IMG/VR virus record: IMGVR_UViG_3300029796_000300
Strand: one strand, 5' to 3'
DNA length: 64,000 bases
Origin: a virus
Shown: piece by piece, positions 9,849-62,415 of the stretch
Layout of the letters: the number at the start of each line of letters is the position of its first letter
Numbering within the stretch: the stretch's first letter is position 1
Notes under the pieces: generated by a model
What the model was told of the DNA's origin: nothing
Seen by the model: only the letters and a program-made list of their open reading frames with translations
Databases searched by the model: none
Translations under genes and position numbers: made by a program

Positions 9849-9861
9849 GTTTTCTCCTTTC

Positions 9862-10398: not shown

Positions 10399-10465
10399 CA
10401 TATCGTCACGCGCAATGTCCGCTTCACGCTGGCGGAACTGCTCGATTGGATTTAAGAAACGGAGA

Positions 10466-10500
10466 ATAGCAAAAAACGCCGCCCATCTGGGCGGCGTTTC
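10466..10500 (-). terminator. intrinsic terminator after sigma factor gene (GCCGCCCAGATGGGCGGC + TTTTTT)
   Basis: Perfect GC hairpin followed by T6. Confidence 0.7.
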
Positions 10501-18699: not shown

Positions 18700-19010
18700 A
18701 GAAAACCAAAGATTTGGTAAATCAGCACTTACCGCTCACGCGGCGTTACTGTGGTCCACATCGCCAAGGATATACCGGGTTTGATGGTACGCACACTTCT
18801 CCTTCCCCTCAGAGATGTTTAATACGCACCCGCAGAGCAGCGGACTTGTGGAGCATCCACCGGTGCCTATGGATTCCGGCATATCGTAGCCTTGCGGCTG
18901 AGGCTTATTGACGAGGCTTACTCCCCTTGCGGGTCATAAGCCACACCAAATGACAGGAGGCTGGGTCGGAGTTTCCGGCGCACCCGCCCGCCATTCGGCG
19001 GGAGTGCAGA
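18700..19010 (-). ncRNA. orphan near-identical duplicate (~300 bp, a few SNPs) of the omega-RNA-like segment 17341-17640, not adjacent to any iscB
   Basis: Near-identity over ~300 bp incl. CACCAAATGACAGGAGGCTG at 18946. Confidence 0.45.
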
Positions 19011-24599: not shown

Positions 24600-24795
24600 T
24601 ATGATGATTTCTCCGTCTGAGCACTCAATGACGGAATAGGCTCCCTCACTCGAAATATTGACACTCCCCACGGCTAAAGCCGGGGGATTCCTGGTTCAAC
24701 GACCGCAGCCTGCACGAGCGAGGTCTTACATGGTCTCCCCAGGCGTATCGGTTCGGGCGTGTCCCGCCCTACCATGAGCAAAAAGTCTATCAGGC
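24600..24795 (-). ncRNA. putative TnpB omega-RNA (reRNA) at 3' end of tnpB / right end of IS
   Basis: Structured GC-rich hairpins immediately 3' of tnpB (CCCACGGCTAAAGCCGGGGG etc.). Confidence 0.4.
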
Positions 24796-25911: not shown

Positions 25912-25957
25912 GAAATCACCGCCTTTCATACTTGATTATACCATATTTTCGTGGTTT

Positions 25958-29895: not shown

Positions 29896-31188
29896 CTATG
29901 CAACCAAATAACTTTGGCTGCGTTCCAATAGTTTTAAGTGTTTGTAGCTCACGCCGTCTTTGACCTTTTCTCCGTTGAGCTGCCGCAGCAGGAAGGAGCC
30001 GCTGGTGCGTCTCCCCCAGACAAAGCACTCGATACCGTTGTAGAGCACCTTGTCGTAGAGGCGGAAGCCGCAGATGTACTTCTCTGCCTGATTGGCCTTC
30101 CGCACACCGCCCTTCAGGATGGTCGCCTTGTGCAGCTGACGGTTGTGATGTCTCACAGGGCAGATGGTGTAAAGTTGGTCCGCCTGACGGATATTTGGCA
30201 GGTATTCTGCGCGAAAGCCCTGCGGGCCGTGCGCGATTGCCAGCGCGTCGTTGGTATGGCTCTTCGGCAGCACCAGCAGATTCTCCCGCGTAGCCTTGGT
30301 GATGTAGCCCCTGGTCTCCACAACGGGGACAGGAAGCTGCTCCCGCAGCCTCCGCAGCAGCGTCATGCGCATGATGCCCATGAAGGTTGCGTCGCGGGTG
30401 GAGCGGCGCTTGCGCTTCTTGATGTCCGCTGCCATGATAATGCCCTTGTGGAGCTTATCGTGACAGGCGGTACAGAGCGTTACCAGATTGTCCGGAGCGT
30501 CACCGCCTACCCTGCGGCTCTCAAGATGATGCACATGGAGCGGGACGCCCTTCCTGACGGAGCCATGCACCCCGCAGATGCGGCAGGTATAGCTGTCGCG
30601 CCACAGGACGTACTGGCGCACGTTGTAGTGGCCGTACATCTCGCCCTTCTGGTAGTCCTCGCCCTGCGGAACAGGCTTCCCTTCCGCAACGGCCTTGAGG
30701 AGCTGCAAGTCGAACTCGGCGGTCTCTACAACCACCTTGCTGACAGGCAGGATGGCGCAGGCACGCCGGATGGCGGTCATGTGCTCCTGAATCTTGACCT
30801 CCACGGAGGGCGCAAGCCAGCCTTTGTGCTTGCTCCGCACGCGATTGTCGAAGCGTGGCTTGCGATACCGGGTGGTACGATTGCGCCGCGCACGGCGGAA
30901 TTGCCTGCGTGCGGACATCAGCTCGACTACATCGTTGCGCGGCTTGACCTCTGCGGAGAACAGTTCCTCCGTTTCGGTGGCAGCTGAAAGACCAATGGTT
31001 TTGCTGCCGGCGTCCACACCGAGGATGACCTCCTGCGTATAGCCGGTACTGCCGTAGAGCAGCTGAATGGTAAATGGTGTTCTGTGTCTCACTTTTGCCT
31101 TGCCCGCATCCAGAAGATGACGGGCCTTCGCCGGTGTGCAGGGCATCAGCGGACGCCCGTGCCGATTGAGAACATAGACCTTTGGCAT
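29896..31188 (-). CDS. iscB: IscB (OMEGA RNA-guided nuclease; PLMP, RuvC-I/II/III, bridge helix, HNH all intact)
   Basis: RPLMPCTP; ILGVDAGSKTIG; RRARRNRTTRYRKPRFDNR; VVVETAEFD; CRICG...HVHH...DNLVTLCTACHDKLH; HTNDALAIA. Confidence 0.85.
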   Translation of the reverse strand: MPKVYVLNRHGRPLMPCTPAKARHLLDAGKAKVRHRTPFTIQLLYGSTGYTQEVILGVDAGSKTIGLSAATETEELFSAEVKPRNDVVELMSARRQFRRARRNRTTRYRKPRFDNRVRSKHKGWLAPSVEVKIQEHMTAIRRACAILPVSKVVVETAEFDLQLLKAVAEGKPVPQGEDYQKGEMYGHYNVRQYVLWRDSYTCRICGVHGSVRKGVPLHVHHLESRRVGGDAPDNLVTLCTACHDKLHKGIIMAADIKKRKRRSTRDATFMGIMRMTLLRRLREQLPVPVVETRGYITKATRENLLVLPKSHTNDALAIAHGPQGFRAEYLPNIRQADQLYTICPVRHHNRQLHKATILKGGVRKANQAEKYICGFRLYDKVLYNGIECFVWGRRTSGSFLLRQLNGEKVKDGVSYKHLKLLERSQSYLVA

Positions 31189-31470
31189 ACGTTGATGCCT
31201 CCTTTCTTTGGGTGCGGCTAAAAATTAAGCCGCTCAGCCTTTCGGCTGTCAGGTATCCGTACCCAATGTTATCCCAGGGTTTTGTGTATGCAGCACTGCT
31301 CCTTACCCTCAGAGCTGTTTAACCACACACCGCAGAGTGGCAGATTCGGATTCACGTCCGCCGGTGCCTATCTATTCCTGGGTAACGTAGTGTTCGAAAC
31401 ACTTAGGGTAGTCAATCAGGCTCGTGGTTCGCACCACAAGCCCCCGGCTTTAGCCGTGGGGTTACATTGA
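31189..31470 (-). ncRNA. putative IscB omega-RNA immediately upstream of iscB
   Basis: Non-coding structured region homologous to 17400-17560 core; terminal hairpin CCCCCGGCTTTAGCCGTGGGG. Confidence 0.5.
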
Positions 31471-33200
31471 CTTTGAGGGACCCCTCTCACTTTGGCCTTT
31501 TCGATTTTTCCAATCACTTCTGTTACCTTCTGTGCAGTCAGAGGGCTGGCGGTGGATTTATCCAGTGCGTCCAGCAGTTCCGGCAGCTCGCCGAGTTTTA
31601 CGACCGGGATTTCGCTGTTGTCCGCATCCTGCAATTTTACATTTGGGTTGGCAAGGCAGATGATGCCGCATACCGGAACATCCTCACCAACGATTTTCGA
31701 CAGTAAGGCAGCGTGACGCTTAACTTGGAAAGCTGGGCTTTCCGTTGTGGTGAAATGCCCTGCATTTCGCATATCCCGGTCCCAATAGTTCGTGTCATCG
31801 ACGCGGATGGTTCCAACGTAGTTTTTTGTCTCAATATGAATGACGCCGGCAGGTCCTACGAGGAGGTGGTCGATTTCCTGTGGCTCTTTCATATAGTCCC
31901 ACGCGGCGATACGGATACATCCTCCGCTGTACTTGCTCACGCAGTCTGCCGCGATGCTGCGGTATGCGCTGTGCTCTGCAAGCCACCACTTGAGTTTGTA
32001 ATTCACTTCCCTCTCACCGGCTTCGCCCAGTTCTCGTGCTTTGCGCTCCCGCTCCTCCTGCTCTTGCTCCACACGAGCGGCTTCCGCCGCCGCGCTGGCG
32101 ATTTGATTGCGGTAGTTCGAGCACACGCTTTCCGCGAGACCAGTCACGCCTTCCAGTATCAGATTAAGCTGACTATTGAGTTGAAAATGTTTGGCCGCTA
32201 TTTCGCTGCGCAAGTGCAAGATGTTTTTCGATTTTTCGAGAAGCACACACTCACCGAGCGTAAGGTCGGAGTAAGCGTCGCAGAAGGCATCTGGGATATT
32301 GAGCCTGCACTTCTCCATTATCCAGCTTTTTACTTCCGCTCTCTTCTGTGCTCTGACACAGCAATACTCCGGATGCGTCCGCTCCAACGTGTCGATGTAC
32401 TGTCGCGCATGGGCGATGATGCCGCTTCGCTCCGCAGCAATCGCTGCTTCCTCGGCCTGCTTCGCCTCCGCTTCCCGGCATCTGGCCTCTTCCTGCCTGC
32501 GTTGCCGCTCCTCACGGATATGCTGCGCGGTCTTCCCGCTTACGCCAGGTTTGAACTCGTACATCTTTCCGGTCGCAAACAGGGCTTTCAGCAGGACGGA
32601 GACATAATAGGCGCTGTACGGAATCAGCAGGACAATGCCAAGGTAGCAGAACACATAGGATACGACGCCGAGAGCCTTCCACAACGAGACGACCAGGACG
32701 AAGGCCGCAACGTAGGCGGCCAGATAGATAAGGCATTTTGTCCTCTGATTTTTGTCGCGAGTCATGGTCAAGAATTTGCTCTGCTCCACATAATCCGCAT
32801 ACTGTTCATCCGATACGACTTTCTGCCACTCGTCCGCCATGCTGCGGTTTGCAAAGAAGAAGGTTCGGAGCATTAACAACAAACCGATAACCGCCAGCAA
32901 AATGAAGGCCACAATGCAGACACAAAGGAGTGCGAGCACAGCGCTAATCACCTTGAGGATACCGTGACCGAGCAGTTCGGCGAGCCATCCGCACAGCTGG
33001 GTCGCCAGAATTCCGCCCATGCCGATGCAGAAGGTCTTAGTGAGCAGTGCAGCTTCCTTTTTCAGTGTTGCCTTGACTGTACTGTAGTATGTTTCCGCAG
33101 ACCTTATCCCCTCGTTGTTCTCCACAATTTCCCGTGCGGCATCCATGTACTTATGAAGCCGGTCAACAAACCAATCTTTGATGGAATCCAACATAAGCAA
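31416..33200 (-). CDS. membrane-anchored NERD (nuclease-related) domain protein
   Basis: N-terminal TM helices; C-terminal ...NYKLKWWL...DHLLVGPAGVIHIETKNYVG NERD pattern; 3' end overlaps omega-RNA region. Confidence 0.65.
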   Translation of the reverse strand: MLMLDSIKDWFVDRLHKYMDAAREIVENNEGIRSAETYYSTVKATLKKEAALLTKTFCIGMGGILATQLCGWLAELLGHGILKVISAVLALLCVCIVAFILLAVIGLLLMLRTFFFANRSMADEWQKVVSDEQYADYVEQSKFLTMTRDKNQRTKCLIYLAAYVAAFVLVVSLWKALGVVSYVFCYLGIVLLIPYSAYYVSVLLKALFATGKMYEFKPGVSGKTAQHIREERQRRQEEARCREAEAKQAEEAAIAAERSGIIAHARQYIDTLERTHPEYCCVRAQKRAEVKSWIMEKCRLNIPDAFCDAYSDLTLGECVLLEKSKNILHLRSEIAAKHFQLNSQLNLILEGVTGLAESVCSNYRNQIASAAAEAARVEQEQEERERKARELGEAGEREVNYKLKWWLAEHSAYRSIAADCVSKYSGGCIRIAAWDYMKEPQEIDHLLVGPAGVIHIETKNYVGTIRVDDTNYWDRDMRNAGHFTTTESPAFQVKRHAALLSKIVGEDVPVCGIICLANPNVKLQDADNSEIPVVKLGELPELLDALDKSTASPLTAQKVTEVIGKIEKAKVRGVPQSQCNPTAKAGGLWCEPRA

Positions 33201-51412: not shown

Positions 51413-51441
51413 AAAAAAGAGCCTCTGCGTTAAGCAGAGGC
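51413..51441 (-). terminator. intrinsic terminator after primase gene (GCCTCTGC..GCAGAGGC + T7)
   Basis: Hairpin + TTTTTTT in gene sense. Confidence 0.6.
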
Positions 51442-52914
51442 CCCTTCACCGCCTGTGGCGGTTCTGATAGACAACAGATAGTCGTCAATTCCCTTGGTCT
51501 TATCAGACCAGTAGTGTTTCTCTTCCAGCCCATCTGCGTTCTTGACGCGGCTGTGCCGGATATTTCGCTTTGCAAGCTCCTGAGAAACATTTGCAAGGTC
51601 TGTGAACACGTTGAAGGTGGTCGGAACGAAAATGCCATGCTCACAACAGATTGCATTCAGTTCGCTGAGTTTCTGTTGTGCATATTCCGCATCCCAGCAT
51701 TTCTCTGCGAGTTTGATGCCGCATCCTGCGGCGATAGCTCGAACACGCTTTCCCGCCTTTGCGACATTGACATTTGTGACCTTATCCATGTCAAATACAT
51801 TGAATACCGTTTCAACACCTTTGCCTTTCAGCCATGCGAAAATTGCTGGCAAGGTTTTGGTATTGGACGTTCCGTGCAGCGCAATGAAAAACATCTTTCG
51901 ATTGCCCTTTAATTCAACTGCCGCATCCGCCTTGAGAGGGCCTTCCGTAATGCAGACAGCGGTTTCCGGGTCATCCAGGCTATCGTTCCCAAGTGGGAAA
52001 TGCGCCTGACTGATATCCGTGGTAACGCCGTCTGGCAGGCCCTTCGCGGAGATGGTCATGTACCGAAGAAACTCCTTGTTCTGACCGGTACGTTTGCAGT
52101 AATCGTTCCAGTCGGACGGTTTATCCCGCCGTACTTGCAGGGCAACGATTTGACCTACCGCATTTCGTGTTGGAATCAGCATCCCCGGTTCAAGGTTGAA
52201 GCACCACACGCCGTCTATCCGGAAAAAACCGGGTACGCCTCGCAGCTCGCATCCGCATTTGGCAAGGATGGAGGCCGCAATGAGACCTGCGATAAGCCGT
52301 TCTGGGGTACGGCGCTTGAGGATATTGTCCTTGCGAATAGACGGAATCAGCTTCTGATACTGCTCCTTCGCTTTCCGGTAACGGTTGACCCACGGAAAAT
52401 CGGCCGAAATGCTTCGATACCCGTTTCGCTCAATCGTTTCATCGGAAAAGCCGCGCCTGTGCAGGTTCTCACGGTGCAGGTCAGAAAGCTGAAAGAACTT
52501 GATGTCCAAGAGCTTCCGATACGCCTTATCCACCACCTCGTCGCTGGCGCGGTGGATTTCCACGACCTCCGGGAGTTGTGCTTTCTGTACGCGGCTGCGA
52601 ACTGGGGCTTCGATGTGCAGGTCGTCGCAGAGCTTTCGGTACATTTCCCTGCTGTTCTGTCCCTTGACACAGCGAACGCCATGTGCAACGCGGGCATACA
52701 GGTCCAACGCTCCTTGCCCCTTCTCACCTCCGGAGCACTTCACACACGAATACGCATTCTTGACGGTATTGATATTCATGTGATATTTGGTGTCATTGCA
52801 AAACGGACAACGAACGTTGAAAGACGTCCCATTAAAATCCGATTGCGGAGACACCTTTAAGCCAAGCAGTTTGACAACCTCTCGGATGTCAATGCTGAAT
52901 TTATCGTAGCCCAT
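51430..52914 (-). CDS. DNA primase-like protein (CHC2 zinc finger N-terminal + TOPRIM-like region)
   Basis: CPFCNDTKYHMNINTVKNAYSCVKCSGG zinc finger. Confidence 0.65.
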   Translation of the reverse strand: MGYDKFSIDIREVVKLLGLKVSPQSDFNGTSFNVRCPFCNDTKYHMNINTVKNAYSCVKCSGGEKGQGALDLYARVAHGVRCVKGQNSREMYRKLCDDLHIEAPVRSRVQKAQLPEVVEIHRASDEVVDKAYRKLLDIKFFQLSDLHRENLHRRGFSDETIERNGYRSISADFPWVNRYRKAKEQYQKLIPSIRKDNILKRRTPERLIAGLIAASILAKCGCELRGVPGFFRIDGVWCFNLEPGMLIPTRNAVGQIVALQVRRDKPSDWNDYCKRTGQNKEFLRYMTISAKGLPDGVTTDISQAHFPLGNDSLDDPETAVCITEGPLKADAAVELKGNRKMFFIALHGTSNTKTLPAIFAWLKGKGVETVFNVFDMDKVTNVNVAKAGKRVRAIAAGCGIKLAEKCWDAEYAQQKLSELNAICCEHGIFVPTTFNVFTDLANVSQELAKRNIRHSRVKNADGLEEKHYWSDKTKGIDDYLLSIRTATGGEGASA

Positions 52915-52984
52915 CCGAGCAGGCTCCTTTCTTCATTTTTGCGCGGCGGGGGTAGAAACCCCCGCCGTTGTGTGTTTGATACGC

Positions 52985-53773
52985 TCAACCGGCTTTGCTC
53001 TGCGTAATGACCTGTGCAGCCTCATGCAGCTGCGGGTAAGTATCCCTGCGGGAGAAGCGGTCGCTTGCGTAGAACTCCACCAGACTGCGGTCAATCGTCA
53101 TCAGCTCACCAAGCGTCTTCTTGGCGTAGTTGCCGAACGGAACGATGACCTGTCTCGCTGCGTCAAGAGACATCTGCATATTCGCAGCCGCCTTTGCCGG
53201 AGCCTGTGTGGGCTGGGTGACAGGGGTGCTGGCCGCCGGACTGGTCGCCGGAATCATGGGGTTATTCTTGGAGGACGGAATCAGGGGATTCGTCTCCACG
53301 AAAGCAACGCCTTCATCGGGAGACGGAATGGAATCCGGGTCATTGGCTATGCCGGTGCTGATTTTGTACGTCTTCATCAAAGCGTACTTATCGGCGTAGG
53401 TCATAGCCTTACCGGGAGCCTTATCTCCGGAATCCATACCCGTGCCGAAGCTGACGGTCTCCAGACAGTCTGTCGGCTCGTCAACGTTGACAAAACGGTA
53501 GACCTCAGTTACCGTCGCCATAACCAAGCGGACCAAACGCTGCTCACCGTTCCACATATACGGCTTCTCGACGATTTTCTGGTCGAGGGTGCGGCTGACC
53601 GCGTAAGAAAAGACGCCGTGCTTCTCTTCCAGCGGCTTGACTGCCGCAAGAATCGTAGCCTCGGAGGTTGCGCTGTACGCCTTATCCCCCTCACCAACGG
53701 TCAGGTCCTTGGCAATAGCGCCCAGTTCTGCGGTGATTGCCGCCACACGCTGAAAAATATTCTTATTGCTCAT
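52985..53773 (-). CDS. ERF-family single-strand annealing protein
   Basis: IFQRVAAI...GKAMTYADKYALMKTY pattern; Pro/Ala-rich linker. Confidence 0.6.
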   Translation of the reverse strand: MSNKNIFQRVAAITAELGAIAKDLTVGEGDKAYSATSEATILAAVKPLEEKHGVFSYAVSRTLDQKIVEKPYMWNGEQRLVRLVMATVTEVYRFVNVDEPTDCLETVSFGTGMDSGDKAPGKAMTYADKYALMKTYKISTGIANDPDSIPSPDEGVAFVETNPLIPSSKNNPMIPATSPAASTPVTQPTQAPAKAAANMQMSLDAARQVIVPFGNYAKKTLGELMTIDRSLVEFYASDRFSRRDTYPQLHEAAQVITQSKAG

Positions 53774-53779
53774 ATTCGA

Positions 53780-54727
53780 TTAAACTCCTTCCTTCTGCCG
53801 TGCCAGATACTCCTGACGTTCGGCCTCCTTTTTGTTCTCTCCTTCGATGATGACGGGGATGCACATGGCATTCTCCCACGTTTCGATGAAGCGTGTTACG
53901 CGATACATCATGCGGTACATATCGCGGTCAGAAACCTGGATAAATACCTCCACCTTGTTTCGCATGGATTTTCCGTCGAATGTCGTGGCCCCGGTCGCCT
54001 GCTCAATCACCTTGGCATCGCCGTTGGTGATTTTCAGGACCCAAGGATACATTGCAAGGTCTCCGTCCTGACGAACGCTGTCATGCGTGACTGTCAGCAT
54101 AGACACCGGCGCAAATCCGTCCGTGCCTTTCTTGTAGGTATTGACCTTGGACATGGCATACTGGTAGTCCATTCGGTGCGGAAATTTGAGCGCAGTCCCA
54201 ATGTCCGCATCCGCGATAGCAGTGCGGGCTTCTTTCAGAACTGTGCCGGCTGCCATGAGGATATCCTTCTTTTCTGCTCCCTTAACGGCCTTGGCCACAA
54301 TGCTTACGCTCTTGCTCAGAAGACTGCCATAAGCCTTCGCAACGCTGGCAGTGCGATGAATCGACTTCATCAGACCATTGACAGCATTGGGGGCCAAAAC
54401 AGTCTCCCATGGCTTCTGCGCATCCTTCGCGACACGTCCAATCAGCGGAACAGCCATCGTACCGACATTGCAGCGGCAAACGGTGAGCCATTCGTCGAAC
54501 ATGGTCGGGTCAATATTCACGGAACAGGTGACACTTTTATCGCCCGTTCCCTTCGTGAAATCACAGATGACCATTTCGATGACAGAGGGAAAGGTCTTTC
54601 CTCCATTTTTCTTGCCGCCAGACTGGTGCATCATCGCATACTCGTCAGGCAGCGACCGGCTCAGCTTGTCGCGAAAGTCAACGACTTTATCCTTGCCGTT
54701 ACACTTGGTAATCACATTTGTTACCAT
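53780..54727 (-). CDS. hypothetical protein cotranscribed with ERF
   Basis: 315-aa ORF after leader copy 5. Confidence 0.6.
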   Translation of the reverse strand: MVTNVITKCNGKDKVVDFRDKLSRSLPDEYAMMHQSGGKKNGGKTFPSVIEMVICDFTKGTGDKSVTCSVNIDPTMFDEWLTVCRCNVGTMAVPLIGRVAKDAQKPWETVLAPNAVNGLMKSIHRTASVAKAYGSLLSKSVSIVAKAVKGAEKKDILMAAGTVLKEARTAIADADIGTALKFPHRMDYQYAMSKVNTYKKGTDGFAPVSMLTVTHDSVRQDGDLAMYPWVLKITNGDAKVIEQATGATTFDGKSMRNKVEVFIQVSDRDMYRMMYRVTRFIETWENAMCIPVIIEGENKKEAERQEYLARQKEGV

Positions 54728-54763
54728 TTTTTCTGATTCTCCTTACTTGTTATTTTTTTGATT

Positions 54764-54917
54764 TATATAAAAGCCTGCGCCCGTTGGGTGCAGACTGAAC
54801 TTTCATTATGTTTGTGATACTTCCTTTGTATGGTCTCAGCATACCGACTTTTTTCTCGCTTACAGAATTGCGCTGTGCAGGAATATAGGTTCTTAGGAAT
54901 AGAAGTACCCAAGAACC
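54764..54917 (-). promoter_or_regulatory. conserved leader element (type B) copy 5; hairpin CTGCGCCC-GTT-GGGTGCAG
   Basis: Alignment with other copies. Confidence 0.6.
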
Positions 54918-54922
54918 AAAGA

Positions 54923-54960
54923 AGGGCAAAAAGAAATCCGGGCCAGAAGGCCCGGATTAT
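54923..54960 (-). terminator. intrinsic terminator after zincin-vWA gene (ATCCGGGCC..GGCCCGGAT + T-tract)
   Basis: Perfect 9-bp GC stem + TTCTTTTT. Confidence 0.65.
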
Positions 54961-54961: not shown

Positions 54962-57103
54962 TCAAATATTGCGCAGAATCCTCTTCTTCACCATCCCTGT
55001 GAGCATCTTCGGAAATTTGCTCAGGTCGGTGATGTCGAGAAAGCCGTCACCGTAAATTGCCTGGATGTGCTCCTTGTCGTTGCCAATAGCTGCCGCAAAA
55101 ACCTCGATACCGTTCCGTCGTGCGGATTTCACGATATTCTGGATATCTGCTCTGGCACTACTGCCGGAATAGTTTCCGTCATTAGGCTGTCCATCGCTGA
55201 TGACAAACATCAGCTTGACCTCCTCCGGCCTCTTTGCAAGAAGGCCAACGGAGGCTGCGATGGCAGCGCCATCACGGTTACAGCCCCCTGTGCTCAGTTT
55301 GGCAAGCCGGAAGGCATCCTGCTTCCCGATGGCATCAAAGCGGGAGAACACATAGTATTCGGCACATCCCCTTGTCTGGGTATTGTGGCCGGCAACCATG
55401 ACTGGAATGCCCAGTCCCGTCGCAAAGTCATAGAGCAGCATGGCCGCCCGCATTGCGGAGTTCATCCGTGCGCCCTGCATGGAGCCGGACATATCAACCA
55501 AAACGCTGACCGCCATAGACGGATAGTCCTGCGGCAGCTTCTTGCTGGCATAGAACTTCTGGTCCGGACGATAGGCATTCTTGATTTCAAGACGGTTGCC
55601 AATGATGCGGTGATGAAGGATAGAACCCTGCTGGATATCAGCCAGAGCTTCCCGAATGAGTTTCTGAAGCCTGCGGGAATATCCCTTCAGGTCAGCCATC
55701 TGCCGCTCATACAGCTTTTTGTCCTGCTCTGTAACGCCTAAGATGCGATGGGGCCTGATATGGCCTCGATGCGTGGGGCCAAGCTCCAACTGGGGGATTT
55801 CTGCCATCAGGTCGGACGTAATGTCCGCCTCCAGCTTTTCCTCCGCCTTCTGGTCGCTGATGCCCCGTGCGATAGCTTCCAAGGCCTCTTTGATTTGCTT
55901 GTCCGTCCCATTCGTATTCGCCGAAGCCTTCGTTTGGGGGGAAGTTTTCTGTCCGCCTTGCGCCTGCTGACCCTTTTGGGCCTGCTTGCGATTTGCGGAA
56001 GCAACTTTGGACGTAGACTGGTTCTGCGGGGCGGCGTTCGCACCGGTATTCGATGCGGTCTGAGCAAGGCCGTTTACAACAGCCTGAATAGCAGCGGCAG
56101 AATGATTCATCGACTGAGTGTTGCCGGAGCTGTTCGGATTCCCGCTTCCAGGATTTCCGTTCGAGCCGGTCTGCCCATCGCTGGAATCGCCGTTGCTGTT
56201 GCTCTGGGGATTTCCCGCTCCCGTCTGATTCTGTTGCTGTTCCGCTTCATCCAGGGCCTCTTTGATGATGGGCCACATGATAAGAAAGATTTCGTTGATT
56301 TGCGTAAAACGATATGCAACGTCATCTGTCCATCTGGCCTGACTCAAGGGCTTTGCCATGTCAATGACCATCTTCATGATGTCGTTGTCACGCACGCACT
56401 GTTCAAGGTCTCTTGCGAAGACATCCTCGAATCGGGCAAACTCAAGCATCAGGGCATAGAGCTTTTGCAGCTTGGTTGCCTTATCATTTGCGAGGATGTT
56501 TTCCGCATAATCGAAACTGCGGAACAGAGCCTCACGCGATGTTGCGATTCCCTTTTCCACTATGCCGCCGAACTCGTCGATGATTTTGCCTTCATCGTGC
56601 GGGTCATCAATGGTGTTGGTCACATCGTTGAAAATCTGCTGAAACAGCGGCCGGTACGCACTGTTCTGAAGCGCGTCCTTCATTTCAGTCAATGCGTCAA
56701 CCTCTGCCTGAGTCTTCGGCACCGGCAGTTCTCCGTAGAACTCTCCGGCCTTGATTTTATCAATGGCCTTCTGCTCCTCCGCAAAATCGCAATAGATGAT
56801 ATGTGCAATTTCGTGGAAATGGATACCCAGCAGAGCCGTAAACTTGGCATAGATGTCATTGTACGCCTCCGTGATGGTATTTTCAGGTACGAGATACTCC
56901 TTCTTTCCGTCCGTCCAACCTGGTGCAATGCCTGTCGGCAGAATTGTCAGGGACAGTCGCTTAGTGATGCCGCAATGCCGCAACAGCGTCTCCCCCATCT
57001 TTTGCAGATAGCTGGAAAACTCAGCGGAGTGGAAGAGTTCTTCGGACCTCAAGTTCTTGCGCTCTTCAGAACTCAGCTTCCTGAGCTGGTGTTCGTATTT
57101 CAT
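54962..57103 (-). CDS. von Willebrand factor A (vWA) domain protein with N-terminal HExxH zincin-like segment and Gly/Ser/Asn-rich linker
   Basis: FHEIAHII; VLVDMSGSM (MIDAS-like DxSxS), ISDGQPND. Confidence 0.75.
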   Translation of the reverse strand: MKYEHQLRKLSSEERKNLRSEELFHSAEFSSYLQKMGETLLRHCGITKRLSLTILPTGIAPGWTDGKKEYLVPENTITEAYNDIYAKFTALLGIHFHEIAHIIYCDFAEEQKAIDKIKAGEFYGELPVPKTQAEVDALTEMKDALQNSAYRPLFQQIFNDVTNTIDDPHDEGKIIDEFGGIVEKGIATSREALFRSFDYAENILANDKATKLQKLYALMLEFARFEDVFARDLEQCVRDNDIMKMVIDMAKPLSQARWTDDVAYRFTQINEIFLIMWPIIKEALDEAEQQQNQTGAGNPQSNSNGDSSDGQTGSNGNPGSGNPNSSGNTQSMNHSAAAIQAVVNGLAQTASNTGANAAPQNQSTSKVASANRKQAQKGQQAQGGQKTSPQTKASANTNGTDKQIKEALEAIARGISDQKAEEKLEADITSDLMAEIPQLELGPTHRGHIRPHRILGVTEQDKKLYERQMADLKGYSRRLQKLIREALADIQQGSILHHRIIGNRLEIKNAYRPDQKFYASKKLPQDYPSMAVSVLVDMSGSMQGARMNSAMRAAMLLYDFATGLGIPVMVAGHNTQTRGCAEYYVFSRFDAIGKQDAFRLAKLSTGGCNRDGAAIAASVGLLAKRPEEVKLMFVISDGQPNDGNYSGSSARADIQNIVKSARRNGIEVFAAAIGNDKEHIQAIYGDGFLDITDLSKFPKMLTGMVKKRILRNI

Positions 57104-57169
57104 ATTCTTTCTCCTTTTTCAGAGAATGGGGACCATGCGGCCCCCATTCTCAGTGTGTTGTGTGGAAAA

Positions 57170-58921
57170 TCAGAGATACAGGTCCACAACGGAACCCATA
57201 ATCTCCTCCTGCTCCTCTACGACAGAAGTTGCCTTCGACACGACGCAGCAGCGGCAGTTCTCACGGACATTACTCATGCCATCGACCTGTACCGTCTGTG
57301 CCCACATCTCAAGCTCCGTCGCAGAGATAGAGCCTTCCGTAATATCGTTCTCCTTGCAGTGCTTGGAAATTGCCAGCCAGACCGTATACATCTTCTCCAG
57401 CAAATCCTTGTCAGGGAAACCGGTGTTATACCGAACACGGGCCAACAGCGTCTCCTTCGTCAGCTCATAAGAGTCAATGACGAAAGCACAGCGACGGATT
57501 ACAGACGGGTCAACCGGACGACAGGAAGCATAGCCGACGTTATCGGTATAAACAACCATCGCATCCGGATGACGGCGCACGAAGCGCCCATCAACCAGCG
57601 GAATCATCGCCCCTGCGCGGTCGTATTCGTTCAGACCGACGAGCACGCCAGCGTCGCGGATACGGGAAATCTCCTGTACCTCAACGATGTAGCCGTGTTC
57701 CAGCGCCTTGACATAGTTCGACTCAACGAACTTGTAGCGCGCCACAGAGCCGTTACTCGCCGCCGCCTTGCCATACGCCTCAAGGGCCATCTGGCAGGTC
57801 GCGTCTTCGTCCTCCACGCCGGTGAGCTTGAAGTAAGCACTGGCGGGGTCCGCCGCGATTTCCGCGAAGTCAGGCAGTTCCGCTGTGTGCGCCCCATCCG
57901 TATCGGGAATGATATCGGAGAGGAAGTTCTGCGTCTCCATCGTGGAATTGCACGGCATACGCAGCAGCGGGATATTCAGGAACCCAGCCATCAGTTCAAC
58001 ACCCGTGGACTTACCATAGGAGGTAATGCCGCGCCACATGAAGTTATTCATGGGACGCTTATCCTTTCTGGTATTCACGAACTTTTTGGCAATGTCGATT
58101 GCCTCCGGCGCGACGGGATAATCGTCTGGGAACTGAGGAATGAGCGCCCGCTCCGCCGCTGACCAGCTGTGACTGGCTGCGAACGCGGAAAACAGCTTCT
58201 TTGCGCTTGCGAATGTGTGCGCCTTTGTTGCTGTTACGCGGATACTGCCGCACAGGACACACGCCTTGCCGCACAGCTCCGTGCCGGACAGAGAACCGCT
58301 TTTGACGCTGGTTCCCGTGAGGATATCAATATTCCCACCGGGAACCTTGACCTCGACCTCGTTGTTGTTCAGCATCACCACCAGCGTGTCGCAGATGCGG
58401 CGGAAACAGCCCTCGTCAAAAGGCGTTCCCGCGTTATACTGCTGCGTGATAGCGTTGAGGTCCGTACCAACACCGTTCCAAATGGAAGTGGCGATAGGCA
58501 ACAGGCACAGATAGATAGGTGCGAGGTTGACCTCGCAGCTTCGGTCAATCGTGGGGAGCGACGTAAAGGTATAGTCCGCAGTTCCCACAACCGGCTTCGC
58601 AATGGCCGCACGAAGGCGGACCGTCTTGCCGTTCGGGTCCGGACGGTTCACCGTCGCAATCAGGACCGTACCATCCGCCTGCGGAAGCTCCGCTGCGTAG
58701 GTAGAGCCGCCGACATCGACCAGCGCCATATCAGCGTGTTCGCCCTTCATCCATGCCACAACCGCCTGTGCGGCGTATGCGTTCAACGCGACATTGCCGC
58801 CACCGTTTCGGAGTGCCGAGAACATAGCTGGCTCCTTTACTGTCGGAGCATAGTTCTGAACCTCTTTCGGGAATCTGGCAACTGACCAACTGGCAGACGG
58901 CGTATTCAAAGTGTGATTCAT
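57170..58921 (-). CDS. MoxR/CbbQ-like AAA+ (AAA_5) ATPase with ~280-aa N-terminal extension
   Basis: Walker A RGITSYGKST; Walker B-like GYIVEVQE; partner of vWA gene. Confidence 0.7.
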   Translation of the reverse strand: MNHTLNTPSASWSVARFPKEVQNYAPTVKEPAMFSALRNGGGNVALNAYAAQAVVAWMKGEHADMALVDVGGSTYAAELPQADGTVLIATVNRPDPNGKTVRLRAAIAKPVVGTADYTFTSLPTIDRSCEVNLAPIYLCLLPIATSIWNGVGTDLNAITQQYNAGTPFDEGCFRRICDTLVVMLNNNEVEVKVPGGNIDILTGTSVKSGSLSGTELCGKACVLCGSIRVTATKAHTFASAKKLFSAFAASHSWSAAERALIPQFPDDYPVAPEAIDIAKKFVNTRKDKRPMNNFMWRGITSYGKSTGVELMAGFLNIPLLRMPCNSTMETQNFLSDIIPDTDGAHTAELPDFAEIAADPASAYFKLTGVEDEDATCQMALEAYGKAAASNGSVARYKFVESNYVKALEHGYIVEVQEISRIRDAGVLVGLNEYDRAGAMIPLVDGRFVRRHPDAMVVYTDNVGYASCRPVDPSVIRRCAFVIDSYELTKETLLARVRYNTGFPDKDLLEKMYTVWLAISKHCKENDITEGSISATELEMWAQTVQVDGMSNVRENCRCCVVSKATSVVEEQEEIMGSVVDLYL

Positions 58922-58943
58922 AGTTTCTTTCTCCTTTCACTCA

Positions 58944-59129
58944 TTAACGGGCGTTTGCAGCAGACAGATTCCGCCACACGCGAAACAGATGCGCGAGATA
59001 ACTCTCCGCTTCCTGTCTCTCCATGAAACCGGAACCCGTCAGGTACTTCATTGCACTTTCCTTGCTGCCACGGGATTCGCCGTCGATGACATAACCCATT
59101 GCTTTCGTAAAGTAGTCGTTTGTAAACAT
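58944..59129 (-). CDS. small hypothetical protein (MFTNDYFTKAMGYVIDG...) first gene after leader copy 6
   Basis: AAAGGAGAA RBS 11 nt upstream. Confidence 0.45.
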   Translation of the reverse strand: MFTNDYFTKAMGYVIDGESRGSKESAMKYLTGSGFMERQEAESYLAHLFRVWRNLSAANAR

Positions 59130-59166
59130 TTTTTCATTTCTCCTTTTTGTTTTGTGTGATTTGGGA

Positions 59167-59310
59167 TATATAAAAAGCCAGTATCCGTAAAGGATGCTGA
59201 CTGAACTTTCTTTATGTTTGCGATACTTCTTTTGTATGGTCACAGCATACCGGCCTTTTTGCCATTTGCAGAATTGTGATAAACAGGAATACAGGTTCCT
59301 GAGTTCCGAG
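59167..59310 (-). promoter_or_regulatory. conserved leader element (type B) copy 6; hairpin GCCAGTATCC-GTAAA-GGATGCTGAC
   Basis: Alignment with other copies. Confidence 0.6.
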
Positions 59311-59379
59311 GTGCCTGAGTGTTTCGGCAAAAAACAGCAGCACCCATCCGGTATGGATAGATGCCGCTGGAAGATGTAC

Positions 59380-59943
59380 TCACATCTGCAAATAGGCATA
59401 TAACAGATGCGGTGTTTTTTCGTTGATGTAGACGAGATATGGGCAATTCGGATAAAACGTCACCTTGCGGGGAAGTGTAAAGGTGAAATAAGACGGAACA
59501 TCATCGTCTGTCCGGAAACACACTTTCGTGGAGCCTTTCAATCCGTTGGAAATTGCGTTTGTCTGTACGCTGTAGCAAATCATCGGCAGTTCCCTAATAG
59601 TGCCGTCCTTAAAATCCAACCGCAGAGAAACCGCACAGTATAGAAGATAGACGGGGAAAAGAAGAAACATGAGCAGCCGCACGGATAGAAGCGTGATGGA
59701 CAACACGATGACTGTCAGCGTCATCAGTACCGCGACCGTACAGAGCATGACTTCCTTGGACTGCAAGGCGGTCGGCAGCTCGATGTCCCGCAGCTCCTGC
59801 CAGATAGATTTCTTCTCCCCCTCCGGTTCCGGTGCCGAGTCCGAAGCCTGTTTCCCTGCGGCATTTTCGGCCCGATTGGCGTCATCCTGCTCCAGCAGGG
59901 CACGGAGATGCGGGAATTCAATAATTTTTGACTTCTTCGGCAT
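59380..59943 (-). CDS. membrane protein (two TM helices)
   Basis: MPKKSKIIEF start; hydrophobic core. Confidence 0.5.
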   Translation of the reverse strand: MPKKSKIIEFPHLRALLEQDDANRAENAAGKQASDSAPEPEGEKKSIWQELRDIELPTALQSKEVMLCTVAVLMTLTVIVLSITLLSVRLLMFLLFPVYLLYCAVSLRLDFKDGTIRELPMICYSVQTNAISNGLKGSTKVCFRTDDDVPSYFTFTLPRKVTFYPNCPYLVYINEKTPHLLYAYLQM

Positions 59944-61024
59944 GACTACCTCCCAAAAGCGGTTCACCGTTTATCGTGAGTGAGTGGAAATATTCGTATG
60001 TTTTGGGCGTGCTTTTTTTCAGAAGCTGCATGGACTTGCTGCCATCCGAATGTGTCAGCAGATAAGCGAAATAATCTGCAAAATATTCGTTGCTGCTTGT
60101 TTTGGCATAGCTGCGGAAGGGTGCATCTTTTGCTTCTGCGTTGAAGAGTTCCTGACTTCTGGCAGGAAAGCTGAGCAGTTCCCCTTCTATAAAATGCCCG
60201 AACTCATGCAGGACTGCCCCCGCTTCCGAAACATAAATGGTTCGCTCCTGATAGCTGGTGACGCCGGTGCAGGACACATTATACAGCTTGCCCATTTTCG
60301 CCGTATACGCATGGTCGATAACGAGCTTCCATCCGTGCTCATTGAACGCATTGAGGACGGTATCCGGAAGATAGCGCAGTTCCATAAGATAATCGTTGAG
60401 ATTCGCGTCAGAGCGATTTTCGCACACGACCGGAGATTTAGGCGCTTCGACCACAAATTGATGTGTCAATGTCTCATATAGATAGACAGCCGCCTCTCCC
60501 CTCGTTACTCTTTCACCTACGGTCGAGGACGCAGAACATAAGCCCAGCTCTTGTCCAACACGCAGGACATTTTCCTCACGGCTAAGTGCCTTCCCTCCAT
60601 AGAGTACATTGTCGTAGACCGGTATCTGTGCGGCATCGAACGCACTTTCCAGAACCGCACTCCGGCAGAGTTGTGTTTCTGGTGAGACGACAGCAGTCTC
60701 ACTCAGCCAACCGTTGCCGTAAGCAGCATCCACGCCGCTCTGACTCTGCTCCATCCATCCATTGCCTTTCATTTGGACACCATAGGCTCGGCAGAGCATG
60801 ACCGCCCATTGCCGAACGGTAATGGGGGCGTCCGGGGAGAACTGGCCGACGCCAGTCCCTGTGACGATTTGCCGTTCTGAGAGATAGACAACGCTATCAT
60901 GATACGGTGCCGTTTCTGGCACATCGGAAAAGCCGGCGTCAGTGGCAGACGCTGTAACGGGAAAAGTCAGTATCAGCGCCAGAGTAAGAATTGCCAGCGC
61001 TGTCCTTCGCAGACCTCGAAACAT
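59918..61024 (-). CDS. secreted zinc metalloprotease, anthrax-lethal-factor-like (ATLF/M34-like) catalytic region with N-terminal SLH-like module
   Basis: Signal peptide; FSDVP...WAV (SLH-like); HEFGHFIEGE + NEYFADYFAYLL...KTYEYF resembles LF HEFGHAV...NEAEFFAEAF...KTFQFI. Confidence 0.6.
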   Translation of the reverse strand: MFRGLRRTALAILTLALILTFPVTASATDAGFSDVPETAPYHDSVVYLSERQIVTGTGVGQFSPDAPITVRQWAVMLCRAYGVQMKGNGWMEQSQSGVDAAYGNGWLSETAVVSPETQLCRSAVLESAFDAAQIPVYDNVLYGGKALSREENVLRVGQELGLCSASSTVGERVTRGEAAVYLYETLTHQFVVEAPKSPVVCENRSDANLNDYLMELRYLPDTVLNAFNEHGWKLVIDHAYTAKMGKLYNVSCTGVTSYQERTIYVSEAGAVLHEFGHFIEGELLSFPARSQELFNAEAKDAPFRSYAKTSSNEYFADYFAYLLTHSDGSKSMQLLKKSTPKTYEYFHSLTINGEPLLGGSHAEEVKNY

Positions 61025-62388
61025 CAGTCACCGCCTCCTTCCGCAGCCGTCTCAGCGTTTGCGTGGATGGCATCCCGAATCGTCTCCGCCAGCGCCCTTG
61101 CCTGCGCTGCGTATTCGCGCTTTGCGTCGGTCGTCGTGTCAATGTCGGAATTGTCGTGGAGCTTATATTTGATGGAAATGGACTTATCGGACAAGTCGCC
61201 GATTGCGTCCGATTGGTCGATGCCGATTTTGATACGAATATAGGCGGGCGTCAAGGTATCTGCCAGCGTTTCATCTTCCAAAAGCGCCGCACGGAGGTAA
61301 TTGAGCTGTTCACCAGCAGGAATCTCCATCAGCTTGGTATATTCGTCGTAGATGCTGACCTGCTCCGCGTTCAGGATATCGCACACAATGACATTCTGCA
61401 TTTCGTAGGTGTCAATGGAAACACTTTGATAGATGGTCGTCTGATGCGTCATTCCGGGAATGTCCGGAGAATCATCCGGGGCTTCCGTCTGCCGGACAGT
61501 CTCCTTTTTAATCGTCATATCAACTTTCGCGCCAAAATTGAGGAGAACGCTGGTCGCGGTTTCATCGTCCAGAGGGGCAGTCACATAGACCTTCCCCTGT
61601 TGCTCATTCACCCACGGATTCTTCGGCGGCGTGTATGCACTCGCCACATTGTTGTATGCGAGATACTGGCCGGTCGGGATATATGCGGTAGCATACTTGC
61701 CGATAAGGCTGGAAGCACGGTTATACTGGTAGATATTCGTTCCGCCCAGAGTAATTTGATTGTAGCTCTCTGCGCTGATGGTGGCGCTCTGAATGACGTC
61801 TTCCGTGATAACATCTCCCGGAATCAGGTCCTGCTTGACCTGAATGACCTGTATCGTGTTCAAGGACGGGTCTGGTTCATCCACGGGTTCCTGATTTTCA
61901 ATCGGCGTAGGGTTGGACGGTGTATCATTGCCGCCGAAAAGCACACTGCTCGCAATGGAGCCGATGATGAACAACACCATCATCCCGCCGATGATGACAA
62001 GCAGCTTCTTCCTGGTCAGCGGAATTTTCTCAAATAGCGGCTGCTCCAAAGATTCCTTCAAGGCGTCCAACCTGCTCCTACCGTCCTCAGATTCATCCTC
62101 AACATCGGATTTGGCCTTCCTGCGCAGCCACCTCCTTTTCCCACTTTCCTCTTCCTCACCGTTCTCTTCTGCCGGAGCCTCCTCTTCCTGGGGCTTTTCC
62201 GGTTCTCTCTTCTTGACCCGCGCACGCTTAACCATCCAGTTTCCTTCCGAATCGAGATAGTAAATTTTCTCGTTGACTTTATCAAAAAAACCGGTCTGCG
62301 GCGTGCCGCCGAGCATGAACTGGCAGGATGGCAGTTTCTTGATTTCCTCTAACTCCTGCGCAGTAATTTTCACAGGTTCATTTGGCAT
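61024..62388 (-). CDS. single-pass membrane protein with large extracytoplasmic domain
   Basis: GAAGGAGGG RBS; TM LLVIIGGMMVLFIIGSIASSVLF. Confidence 0.55.
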   Translation of the reverse strand: MPNEPVKITAQELEEIKKLPSCQFMLGGTPQTGFFDKVNEKIYYLDSEGNWMVKRARVKKREPEKPQEEEAPAEENGEEEESGKRRWLRRKAKSDVEDESEDGRSRLDALKESLEQPLFEKIPLTRKKLLVIIGGMMVLFIIGSIASSVLFGGNDTPSNPTPIENQEPVDEPDPSLNTIQVIQVKQDLIPGDVITEDVIQSATISAESYNQITLGGTNIYQYNRASSLIGKYATAYIPTGQYLAYNNVASAYTPPKNPWVNEQQGKVYVTAPLDDETATSVLLNFGAKVDMTIKKETVRQTEAPDDSPDIPGMTHQTTIYQSVSIDTYEMQNVIVCDILNAEQVSIYDEYTKLMEIPAGEQLNYLRAALLEDETLADTLTPAYIRIKIGIDQSDAIGDLSDKSISIKYKLHDNSDIDTTTDAKREYAAQARALAETIRDAIHANAETAAEGGGD

Positions 62389-62415
62389 CTGAATCCCTCC
62401 TTCTGTGCGCATTTT

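Follow-up and report, generated by a model that had tools for sequence, protein, structure and literature searches.

In the 64,000-nucleotide stretch of DNA analysed here (the window), ORF calling placed three ORFs on the minus strand, at 58944-59129, 57170-58921 and 54962-57103. They follow a leader and encode, in this order, a 61-aa protein, a predicted 583-aa MoxR-class AAA+ ATPase and a 713-aa HExxH/linker/VWA protein, below called the adaptor. The features of this unit and its borders are:

59335..59369, minus strand: intrinsic terminator closing the upstream gene (59380-59967); 15-pair stem, then TTTTTT
59131..59334, minus strand: leader cassette, one of six copies in the window (repeat families D1, D3, D5, D7)
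58944..59129, minus strand: conserved 61-aa protein, third component of the unit (ORF; homologues in related elements)
58172..58921, minus strand: ATPase N-terminal domain, residues 1-250; confidently folded, fast-evolving
57170..58171, minus strand: predicted MoxR-class (CbbQ/NorQ/CobS-like) AAA+ module (CbbQ/NorQ structure matches, hhalign to Vcrx089, invariant residues)
56249..57103, minus strand: zincin (M48-like) N-domain of the adaptor, with HExxH at 56801-56815
55784..56248, minus strand: low-complexity Q/N/S/G/A linker of the adaptor (composition; 38% mean identity and variable length among homologues, alignment A1)
54965..55528, minus strand: C-terminal VWA domain with intact MIDAS (Pfam CobT_C and VWA; DxSxS at 55481-55495)
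54935..54958, minus strand: intrinsic terminator ending the three-gene unit; 10-pair stem (7 G-C), then TCTTTTT, beginning 4 nt past the stop codon

The ATPase gene stops at 57170 and the adaptor gene starts at 57103, which makes the two adjacent, and intrinsic terminators stand on both sides of the three-gene unit. An earlier note had proposed a leader-controlled operon of three genes. Its coordinates were confirmed, with all three ORFs on the minus strand in one terminator-bounded unit behind a leader, as was the clean terminator after the last gene (10-bp stem at 54958-54935, past the stop). The small protein, listed there with 62 aa, is a real ORF, but its length is 61 aa plus the stop codon. 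When called mechanically this small ORF extends to 59399; the extra stretch is non-coding leader.

The leader core, GGTATGCTGNGACCATACAAAAGAAGTATC, is conserved and has 6 occurrences in the window against 0 expected. The leader ends in a terminator-like hairpin with a U-run at approximately 59171-59201, and the leader hairpin contains compensatory pairs (alignment A7, RNAalifold). A search of the leader gave no Rfam match. In relatives, a TTGACC-N17-TACAAT promoter is found at the position equivalent to the leader. The start codon of the small protein is preceded by AAGGAGAA, which is proposed, by eye, to be the RBS.

Judging from its sequence, the 583-aa protein appears to be a MoxR-class AAA+ ATPase of the CbbQ/NorQ/CobS subgroup. 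It matched the PDB entries 5c3c (CbbQ/NirQ/NorQ, E 2e-8) and 6l1q (CbbQ, E 6e-6), and hhalign aligned its family with Vcrx089 of IncC over 270 columns spanning all of Vcrx089 (probability 88.8%, E 2.5e-6). The AAA+ assignment rests on these matches because the Pfam AAA_5 score of 15.3 bits lies below the gathering score of 22 (the L006 relative passes with 49.4 bits). The earlier label of an AAA_5-type ATPase needs this correction. The Walker A motif GITSYGKST occupies residues 298-306 (58004-58030); among 25 homologues G303, K304 and S305 are invariant, and conservation at G298 and T306 is 90% or more. Walker B reads IVEVQE, with Q416 and E417 (57671-57676) both invariant in the same homologues. 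Q416 replaces the Walker B Asp, and the catalytic E417 is kept. N461, R476 and R477 are also invariant in the homologue alignment, and the sensor-1 Asn and Arg are kept. The N-terminal domain (residues 1-250) had no structural match in the PDB, and this fast-evolving domain is the new feature of the unit.

The 713-aa protein is a CobT-family VWA adaptor with a zincin-like N-domain. Both of its Pfam matches are above threshold (CobT_C 39.4 bits with a cut-off of 21, VWA 31.8 bits), and structure matches of the VWA domain, which ends the protein at residue 713, are NorD (9qhd_G, E 4e-6) and CobT (9uka_G). Invariant VWA/MIDAS residues in the homologue alignment are D537, S539, S541, N609, D611 and D637. 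The motif FHEIAHII covers residues 96-103; H97, E98 and H101 lie within helix 84-104 and do not vary even in homologues with as little as 16% identity. Helix 148-178 holds the invariant D167 and E171, of which E171 (56591-56593) is proposed as the third zinc ligand. HExxH on one helix with an acidic residue on a later one agrees with a gluzincin-like zincin. The zincin fold comes from the structure model (pLDDT 92), and the succession of an M48-like N-terminal domain (helix, three-stranded sheet, helical bundle) and a disordered linker, 72% Q/A/N/S/G over residues 286-400, agrees with the CobT-family plan. Among full-length representatives of the adaptor family clustered at 50% identity, HExxH is present in 138 of 138 and DxSxS in 136 of 138. 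The ATPase-adaptor pairing is retained in all loci examined.

The N-terminal HExxH, Gly/Ser/Asn-rich linker and C-terminal vWA/MIDAS domain of the earlier description are all present. The fusion of a peptidase-like domain to vWA is not, however, peculiar to this element: chelatase CobT, phage CobT-like proteins and the IncC VWA protein have the same N-domain/linker/VWA plan, and Iyer et al. 2021 already noted the metallopeptidase-vWA arrangement in jumbo phages. The zincin-VWA architecture is the standard, already known plan of CobT-family adaptors.

Homologues of the 61-aa protein (26-44% identity) were found directly upstream of the ATPase gene in the related loci L002, L003, L004, L007 and L010. 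The protein has no Pfam, NCBIfam, PHROG or PADLOC match.

The three genes are linked to a next unit on the same strand:

51430..54934, minus strand: linked next unit (second leader copy, 315-aa protein, ERF, primase-like gene)
54730-54934, minus strand: second leader copy, start of the next unit
53780-54727, minus strand: 315-aa protein (p315), with a homologue encoded next after VWA in L006
52985-53773, minus strand: ERF single-strand annealing protein (Pfam ERF)
51430-52914, minus strand: primase-like protein (Pfam CHC2 zinc finger, DUF3854)

In L002 and L004 these genes keep a colinear order with the trio, and in L007 they are still adjacent though rearranged. The order trio-p315-ERF-primase-...-CHAP-T4CP is colinear in elements of only 35-54% identity, and in an Oscillospiraceae ICE family the trio belongs to the syntenic backbone and not to variable defence cargo. 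The host element is a conjugative element (ICE) of a gut Clostridia bacterium and belongs to this family. T4CP, a VirB4-like ATPase and CHAP/lysozyme are encoded in the window, in agreement with the conjugative setting given earlier; neither a relaxase nor oriT was found within the window. In relatives SSB, YqaJ, ParB_N, DpnD/PcfM and an Apyc1-like gene occur near the trio. The ATPase-VWA pair of L006/L011 and L010 is accompanied by SSB, YqaJ, ParB_N and PcfM, with no T4SS genes within 10 kb. A consistent link of homologues to metalloenzyme maturation was the observation that the earlier note had named as speaking against its proposal. In the related loci this objection does not arise, because the homologues sit in mobile contexts and not in metalloenzyme maturation operons.

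The trio shares its architecture and probable mechanics with CobST(N), NorQD and CbbQO: an AAA+ ring, an M48-like N-domain on the ATPase lid, a disordered linker and a client-contacting VWA/MIDAS domain. In the solved CobST the linker is disordered, and CobT_N, described as M48C-like, binds to the lid of CobS. The present unit differs from all three systems in its mobile-element context, its extra ATPase N-domain and its small partner protein, and near the trio there is no gene for a client such as CobN, NorB or Rubisco. Genuine chelatase CobT has lost HExxH (the solved sequences 9uka_G and 21vu_H read ...ARHNPRIHAAL...), whereas the present adaptor family always keeps it.

The same adaptor plan is seen in the 'CobS/CobT' clusters of phages and archaeal viruses, among them the MoxR + metallopeptidase-vWA pair of jumbo phages (Iyer et al. 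2021; Liu et al. 2021). The functions proposed in phages are virion assembly (Iyer et al. 2021) or cobalamin synthesis (Liu et al. 2021). The fold of the adaptor N-domain matched 13 phage proteins of 222-784 aa, most of them 607-784 aa, with BFVD probability 1.0, and HExxH is kept in CRP-810 and ICP2 CobT as in the present adaptor. The ATPase gene adjoins the adaptor gene in phage clusters (in CRP-810 the ATPase gene precedes the adaptor gene, and its product is likewise long, 617 aa). However, BLAST similarity of phage adaptors to the present adaptor is confined to the VWA part, the N-extensions of the present ATPase and of CRP-810 CobS are not homologous, and the present element, unlike the phage clusters, lacks a virion context.

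The closest tested analogue of the trio is the IncC hde operon, with the order ATPase-vcrx090-ssb-bet-exo-DUF3150-VWA. There vcrx089-090, an anti-restriction pair in AntiDefenseFinder, counters type I R-M in the recipient cell (PMC7498323), and its deletion raises EcoKI/EcoBI restriction 400-900-fold (PMC11602122). This anti-restriction phenotype is known from IncC genes only, those of pVCR94 and pKAZ3 (PMC7498323, PMC11602122). The five genes that the Tn-seq screen hit do not include the IncC VWA gene (PMC7498323), and a share of the adaptor in anti-restriction is therefore unproven even for IncC. IncC/SXT-R391 hde and the present element both combine a conjugative-element backbone with a MoxR/CbbQ-class ATPase and a CobT-like protein. 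The IncC VWA protein and the present adaptor (hhalign probability 97.8%) both have the motifs HExxH-xxx-DF and N..ED...E, a Q/N/G-rich linker and a C-terminal VWA domain; both loci are clustered with a single-strand annealing recombinase module; and both ATPases have an amide in place of the Walker B Asp (INE in Vcrx089, VQE here).

The similarity to IncC is nevertheless remote, at 22-24% identity; the ATPase and Vcrx089 share 24% over 197 aa by BLASTP, which denotes superfamily level and not orthology. The ATPase and VWA genes are five genes apart in IncC but adjacent here, and the 250-aa N-terminal domain and an insertion of the present ATPase are absent from the 322-aa Vcrx089 (hhalign). 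The recombinase is ERF here and RecT/Bet in IncC, and the present host is Gram-positive, unlike that of IncC. No Vcrx090 homologue was found, with an hhalign probability of 0.2% against the ATPase family and no BLASTP match to the 61-aa protein or p315. Instead, the unit has the 61-aa protein.

The trio is tentatively read as a CobS/CobT-type remodelling/protease machine of mobile elements, serving establishment or counter-defence in the recipient; we place this reading somewhat short of an even chance. The MoxR-class ATPase, expected to be a hexamer, would be the motor and would work with one adaptor protein. By analogy with the solved CobST and NorQD, we infer that the M48-like N-domain of the adaptor docks on the ATPase lid. 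The flexible linker would supply reach, the C-terminal VWA/MIDAS domain would grip an acidic residue of the target protein, and ATP hydrolysis would remodel that target. Because the intact HExxH...E zinc site is kept, unlike in chelatase CobT, the adaptor is probably also a protease that cleaves the held target, an activity predicted from motif and fold only. Specificity or regulation is likely to lie with the fast-evolving ATPase N-domain and the 61-aa protein. The module is expressed as a separate unit, behind a leader that lies near the promoter and ends in the terminator-like hairpin. It travels with genes for ssDNA handling: the ERF annealase and primase here, and SSB or YqaJ exonuclease in relatives. 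Most likely it would neutralise host proteins, e.g. restriction complexes, and in this way establish the transferred DNA in the recipient, as Vcrx089 with Vcrx090 does in the IncC hde operon. Against this reading stand the remote homology to Vcrx089, the missing homologue of Vcrx090, the partner that Vcrx089 requires, the absence of the IncC VWA gene among the Tn-seq hits, and the Walker B Gln. The module type is already known from phages and resistance plasmids, and the one tested motor of this type helps DNA that enters the cell to escape restriction.

Alternatively, the module could act in the donor as an assembly chaperone and processing protease of the element's own machinery, which folds, inserts or proteolytically matures a component of the conjugation apparatus or relaxosome. 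As a rule, MoxR-VWA pairs serve as chaperones in maturation; for the jumbo-phage pair, virion assembly/processing is predicted by Iyer et al. 2021, who cite the Acidianus two-tailed virus tail as precedent; and the colinear block extends from the trio to TrbC/pilin-like genes, the CHAP lysozyme and T4CP. We regard this as unlikely, as the pair in L006/L011 and L010 has no nearby T4SS genes, the module occurs in both phages and plasmids, which have no structural proteins in common, and the sole experimental datum on a plasmid relative favours action in the recipient (PMC7498323).

As an accessory of the recombination/replication genes, the module could clear or cleave covalently bound relaxase or other DNA-bound proteins on the transferred strand, so that ERF, SSB and primase can work. 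The probability of such a role is judged to be rather low.

The earlier note had considered a possible vWA-MoxR conflict or chaperone system. As defence cargo of the conflict type, the module would guard the host against phages or rival plasmids with the zincin as effector. The pairing of a MoxR ATPase with vWA is common to the trio and the core of the conflict systems of Kaur, Burroughs, Iyer and Aravind (Kaur et al. 2020), in which a metallopeptidase is occasionally the effector. A conflict setting is possible for the trio, and the fast evolution of the ATPase N-domain is as expected of a conflict protein. These systems, which derive from CoxD/CoxE-type pairs, need VMAP or iSTAND and carry variable effectors C-terminal to vWA (Kaur et al. 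2020). The unit contains neither VMAP nor iSTAND (its third gene encodes the 61-aa protein, without a domain match), no effector domain follows VWA in the adaptor, and PADLOC gave no match for any of the five proteins tested. In addition, the trio lies in a conserved, colinear element backbone and not in a variable island, and the zincin represents the ancestral docking domain CobT_N and no effector that was added. Membership in the vWA-MoxR NTP-dependent conflict systems is therefore rejected, and defence of the host is very improbable. What survives is a MoxR + vWA unit with a zincin-like N-domain on a mobile element; by analogy with IncC, a conflict role could be retained only if inverted, as counter-defence for the element.

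The reading of the module as a true CobS/CobT cobaltochelatase, whose two auxiliary metabolic genes would exploit host CobN to raise cobalamin synthesis, is scarcely credible despite the Pfam CobT_C and PHROG 'CobT' matches and the cobalamin role that Liu et al. 2021 propose for viral cobST, as neither CobN nor any cobalamin gene turned up in the scanned window ORFs or related loci, the HExxH absent from solved CobT is always kept in the adaptor clade, the ATPase has its extra domain and insertion, and the related IncC ATPase has an anti-restriction phenotype (PMC7498323, PMC11602122).

The trio and its flanking signals lie on the minus strand, which is the transcribed strand of this region:

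59369-59335 (-), intrinsic terminator ending the upstream gene
about 59334-59131 (-), repeated leader before the small ORF
59129-58944 (-), 61-aa ORF
58921-57170 (-), 583-aa ORF (ATPase)
57103-54962 (-), 713-aa ORF (CobT-like adaptor)
54958-54935 (-), strong terminator after the 713-aa ORF

The unit that follows this last terminator begins with a second copy of the leader. The operon order and motifs described in the earlier note were borne out, except that the small protein has 61 aa, not 62. The Walker A sequence GITSYGKST was found at ATPase residues 298-306 and FHEIAHII at residues 96-103 of the 713-aa protein, which also has the Q/N/S/G/A-rich linker and the C-terminal VWA domain. The terminator after its gene was likewise confirmed. 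Pfam AAA_5 scores the ATPase at 15.3 bits, below the 22-bit threshold. In sum, what the note had observed is confirmed and what it made of the observation is supported in part.

In tailed phages and on large resistance plasmids, few unexplained genes are commoner than CobS/CobT-like pairs, which are usually annotated as vitamin B12 genes. The 713-aa protein matches CobT_C and VWA in Pfam and NorD and CobT in the PDB, and its MIDAS residues are invariant in homologues. In a 2026 structural preprint on cobalt chelatase, CobT_N resembles peptidase M48C (a helix, a three-stranded sheet, and eight helices), is separated from the C-terminal VWA domain by a disordered linker of ~90 residues, and has the CobS lid and CobN as its docking sites. 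The zincin-vWA fusion is no peculiarity of this element: the solved chelatase CobT has the same arrangement, and N-domain, linker, and VWA domain in one protein is the normal plan of the CobT family.

The solved CobT (9uka_G, 21vu_H) has no HExxH in its N-domain, and the aligned region reads ARHNPRIH. An exhaustive profile search with the adaptor family matched 1083 clusters (50% identity) at E<=1e-30. Among the 138 full-length proteins within the best 146 of these clusters, HExxH is present in all 138 and DxSxS in 136. Longer family members (800-1150 aa) were scanned for extra domains and contain longer linkers only. When the N-domain model was compared with predicted viral structures, 13 phage and archaeal-virus proteins matched with probability 1.0; these are mostly 607-784 aa long, and the named ones are called 'VWFA' or 'CobT-like'. 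The motif set of the ICE adaptor family is common to all three mobile-element examples that were read: CobT of Roseobacter phage CRP-810 (HEAGH...SDF...NALEDIWLE), CobT of Vibrio phage ICP2 (HECYH...NMVVDHNIE), and the IncC plasmid VWA protein (HEAAH...TDF...NVLEDCRIE, then a Q/N/G linker and VDMSSSM). With the zincin N-domain alone as query, TBLASTN matched no plasmid and, among phages, only two faecal contigs that lack annotation, and the profile of the domain had no match among PDB sequences. The connection of the N-domain with CobT_N and phage CobT is thus based on structure and motifs. An intact HExxH was located in these genes:

L015 (IncC pKpn47), 8959-10755, backbone 'VWA domain-containing protein'
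L014 (phage locus), 2714-4666, phage 'cobaltochelatase CobT'
L013 (phage locus), 2804-4546, phage 'cobaltochelatase CobT'

Because these genes keep the motif that solved CobT lacks, their chelatase annotation appears doubtful.

The C-terminal 330 residues of the ATPase match CbbQ/NirQ/NorQ structures (5c3c, E 2e-8). Invariant positions across 25 homologues are the Walker A Lys, E417 (catalytic Glu), N461 (sensor-1 Asn), and two arginines (R476 and R477), and in place of the Walker B Asp there is an invariant Gln. The ATPase N-domain is fast-evolving and has no structural match. Five other elements conserve the 61-aa protein, encoded right before the ATPase, and it and the N-domain are candidates for client choice or regulation. 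TBLASTN of the ATPase against plasmids uncovered solely a fused AAA-VWA protein on an Enterococcus faecium megaplasmid, which sits among housekeeping genes and is uninformative. On E. faecium plasmid p114-2 (L005, 10675-12903), a related AAA+ module and a related VWA domain are joined in a single 742-aa protein that lacks the N-terminal domains; its gene is preceded by a DUF6530 gene and has housekeeping-type neighbours.

The window is a conjugative element encoding a T4CP, a VirB4-like ATPase, CHAP/lysozyme, an ERF recombinase, and a primase-like protein. Chromosomal contigs that carry it come from Oscillospiraceae bacterium CM18GR_63 (99% identity) and, with only about 49% identity, from Pseudoflavonifractor sp. 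Marseille-P3106. The order trio-p315-ERF-primase-...-CHAP-T4CP is colinear in two relatives that are only 35-54% identical. In a third (L007) the p315, ERF-like, and primase genes are rearranged to upstream of the trio, still adjacent. The gene for p315, a 315-aa protein (53780-54727 (-)), also follows the VWA gene in L002, L004, and L006, the L006 version having 228 aa. It shifts together with ERF and primase in L007, and p315 may be a fourth functional partner. In distant branches the ATPase-adaptor pair adjoins SSB and NAD ligase, and in others YqaJ exonuclease, ParB_N, DpnD/PcfM, and an Apyc1-like gene. In L010, for example, the trio homologue has a gene for a metallo-beta-lactamase-fold protein that weakly matches Anti-Pycsar Apyc1 (6376-7284) 2.7 kb upstream and DpnD/PcfM and ParB_N genes downstream, surroundings that resemble a region for anti-defence or establishment. 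A relaxase or oriT that would place the trio in a leading region was sought in 30 window ORFs without success. Megablast with the operon found nothing among plasmids and phages, NCBIfam and PADLOC searches returned nothing, and the PHROGs matches were an unknown-function family and 'CobT' only. Just upstream of the unit are genes for an SLH protein with an anthrax-lethal-factor-like (ATLF) zincin and for a SAF/CpaB-like protein (59918-61024 (-) and 61024-62412 (-)), whose order and strand vary in relatives.

The nearest precedent is the IncC hde operon. On an IncC plasmid the gene order was confirmed as AAA ATPase (vcrx089), vcrx090, ssb, bet, exo, DUF3150, and the VWA gene at the vcrx095 position, and according to the literature a MoxR-like/CbbQ ATPase and a VWA protein are also kept in the backbones of pCAR1, R478, Rts1, SXT, and R391. 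Type I restriction is countered by vcrx089-090 from within the recipient, and CRISPR-Cas breaks are repaired by ssb/bet/exo; the Tn-seq screen did not point to the VWA gene itself (Roy et al. 2020, PMC7498323). Deletion of vcrx089-090 raises EcoKI/EcoBI restriction 400-900-fold (Dimitriu et al. 2024, PMC11602122), and AntiDefenseFinder includes the pair. The ICE ATPase family aligns with the full length of Vcrx089 (hhalign 88.8%, E 2.5e-6; a similarity at superfamily level) and the ICE adaptor with the IncC VWA protein (hhalign 97.8%). A Vcrx090 homologue is absent from the ICE unit. Literature searches for what VWA/MoxR proteins do in leading regions of plasmids or in phage CobST brought up nothing direct.

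The possible roles were ranked on the linkage to ssDNA-handling genes and on the phenotype seen in IncC. Establishment or counter-defence, acting in the recipient, comes first and is proposed tentatively. A module that helps to assemble or process the element's own machinery, as a chaperone or protease, is unlikely, and one acting on protein-DNA complexes of the transferred strand slightly more so. The earlier note had suggested a possible vWA-MoxR conflict or chaperone system, but there is no PADLOC match and no VMAP, iSTAND, or effector domain, which together with the conserved context indicates a backbone module, not defence cargo; a defence system of the ternary type (Kaur et al. 2020) was therefore rejected as improbable. 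A genuine cobaltochelatase CobS/CobT was rejected as very improbable, since the adaptor family keeps the HExxH absent from solved CobT.

As for the mechanism, the M48-like N-domain would dock the adaptor onto the motor ring as in CobST, the linker would give it reach, and the MIDAS site would hold an acidic residue of the client, which would be remodelled through ATP hydrolysis and probably cleaved by the retained zinc site. It is conceivable, if rather unlikely, that the whole mobile-element CobT-like clade (phage 'CobT', the IncC/SXT VWA protein, and the ICE family; >1000 clusters at 50% identity) consists of widespread AAA+-coupled metalloproteases, whose MIDAS captures host defence proteins for destruction in the newly entered cell, with the Clostridial ICE ATPase N-domain and 61-aa protein recognising the targets. 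Type I restriction complexes would be examples of such targets.

A mobile-element module of CobS/CobT kind is already known, and a MoxR and metallopeptidase-vWA pair has been noted in jumbo phages (Iyer et al. 2021). For viral cobST clusters, a contribution to host cobalamin synthesis has been proposed (Liu et al. 2021). The Clostridial ICE setting, the ATPase N-domain without structural match, and the small partner protein are new. The zinc-protease site lost in true chelatase is intact in all ICE-family representatives examined and in the three phage/IncC proteins read, the pair is linked to ssDNA recombination genes from Gammaproteobacteria to Clostridia, and the gut-Clostridia ICE family gained a new N-domain and small partner. 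These three points argue against the chelatase annotation and lead to a testable hypothesis of an ATP-driven protease for counter-defence or establishment. If it is true, a factor that sets the host range of gene transfer in the gut microbiome would have been identified; the AAA+-coupled metalloprotease reading, if true, would explain the long-puzzling phage 'cobST' and how vcrx089-type anti-restriction works.

The leader core motif occurs 6 times in the window against 0 expected, in six copies of roughly 190 nt each:

about 59334-59131 (-), leader copy
54934-54730 (-), leader copy
10440-10200 (-), leader copy
8400-8186 (-), leader copy
5210-4996 (-), leader copy
1210-1000 (-), leader copy

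Each is preceded by the previous gene's terminator, contains an invariant GUAUG/CAUAC hairpin and a conserved AAGAAGTATC box, and ends in a terminator-like hairpin that shows compensatory changes and is followed by a U-run; AAGGAGAA (the proposed RBS) and the start codon come right after. The -35 region is not conserved across the six copies, and an Rfam search gave no match at E<=1. In relatives, upstream of the small ORF and of the p305 gene alike, a canonical sigma-70-type promoter (TTGACC-N17-TACAAT) at the position equivalent to the leader comes first, followed by a conserved AAGGAAGTATC box, a hairpin with U-run, a conserved TATATACACAAA box, and the RBS; the stem sequence differs between elements. 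By this order the leader is a 5'UTR cassette that lies close to the promoter and carries a terminator-like hairpin. The architecture is compatible with conditional read-through. The leader is a candidate attenuator or antitermination cassette, and leader-mediated control of the unit is plausible. The element also encodes a sigma-70-family factor with regions 2 and 4 (10501-11622 (-)) and a protein with an RNA polymerase alpha C-terminal domain (13358-14614 (-)), which may drive leader-type units. Distinct from the leader cassettes are seven near-consensus extended -10 promoters, TTGACT-N17-TGGTATAAT (repeat families D4 and D6, minus-strand reading):

62447-62407 (-), extended -10 promoter
42380-42340 (-), extended -10 promoter
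41726-41686 (-), extended -10 promoter
29336-29296 (-), extended -10 promoter
27034-26994 (-), extended -10 promoter
21315-21275 (-), extended -10 promoter
11675-11635 (-), extended -10 promoter

Elsewhere in the window, three HEARO (IscB omega) RNAs score above the Rfam gathering score (31248-31471, 18749-18968, 17386-17549 (-)), and two of the three are adjoined by RRXRR(+HNH) IscB-like ORFs (29896-31188 and 15723-17159 (-)). These and a TnpB/Cas12f-like ORF (24790-25929 (-)) represent transposon-associated nucleases of the OMEGA type within the ICE.
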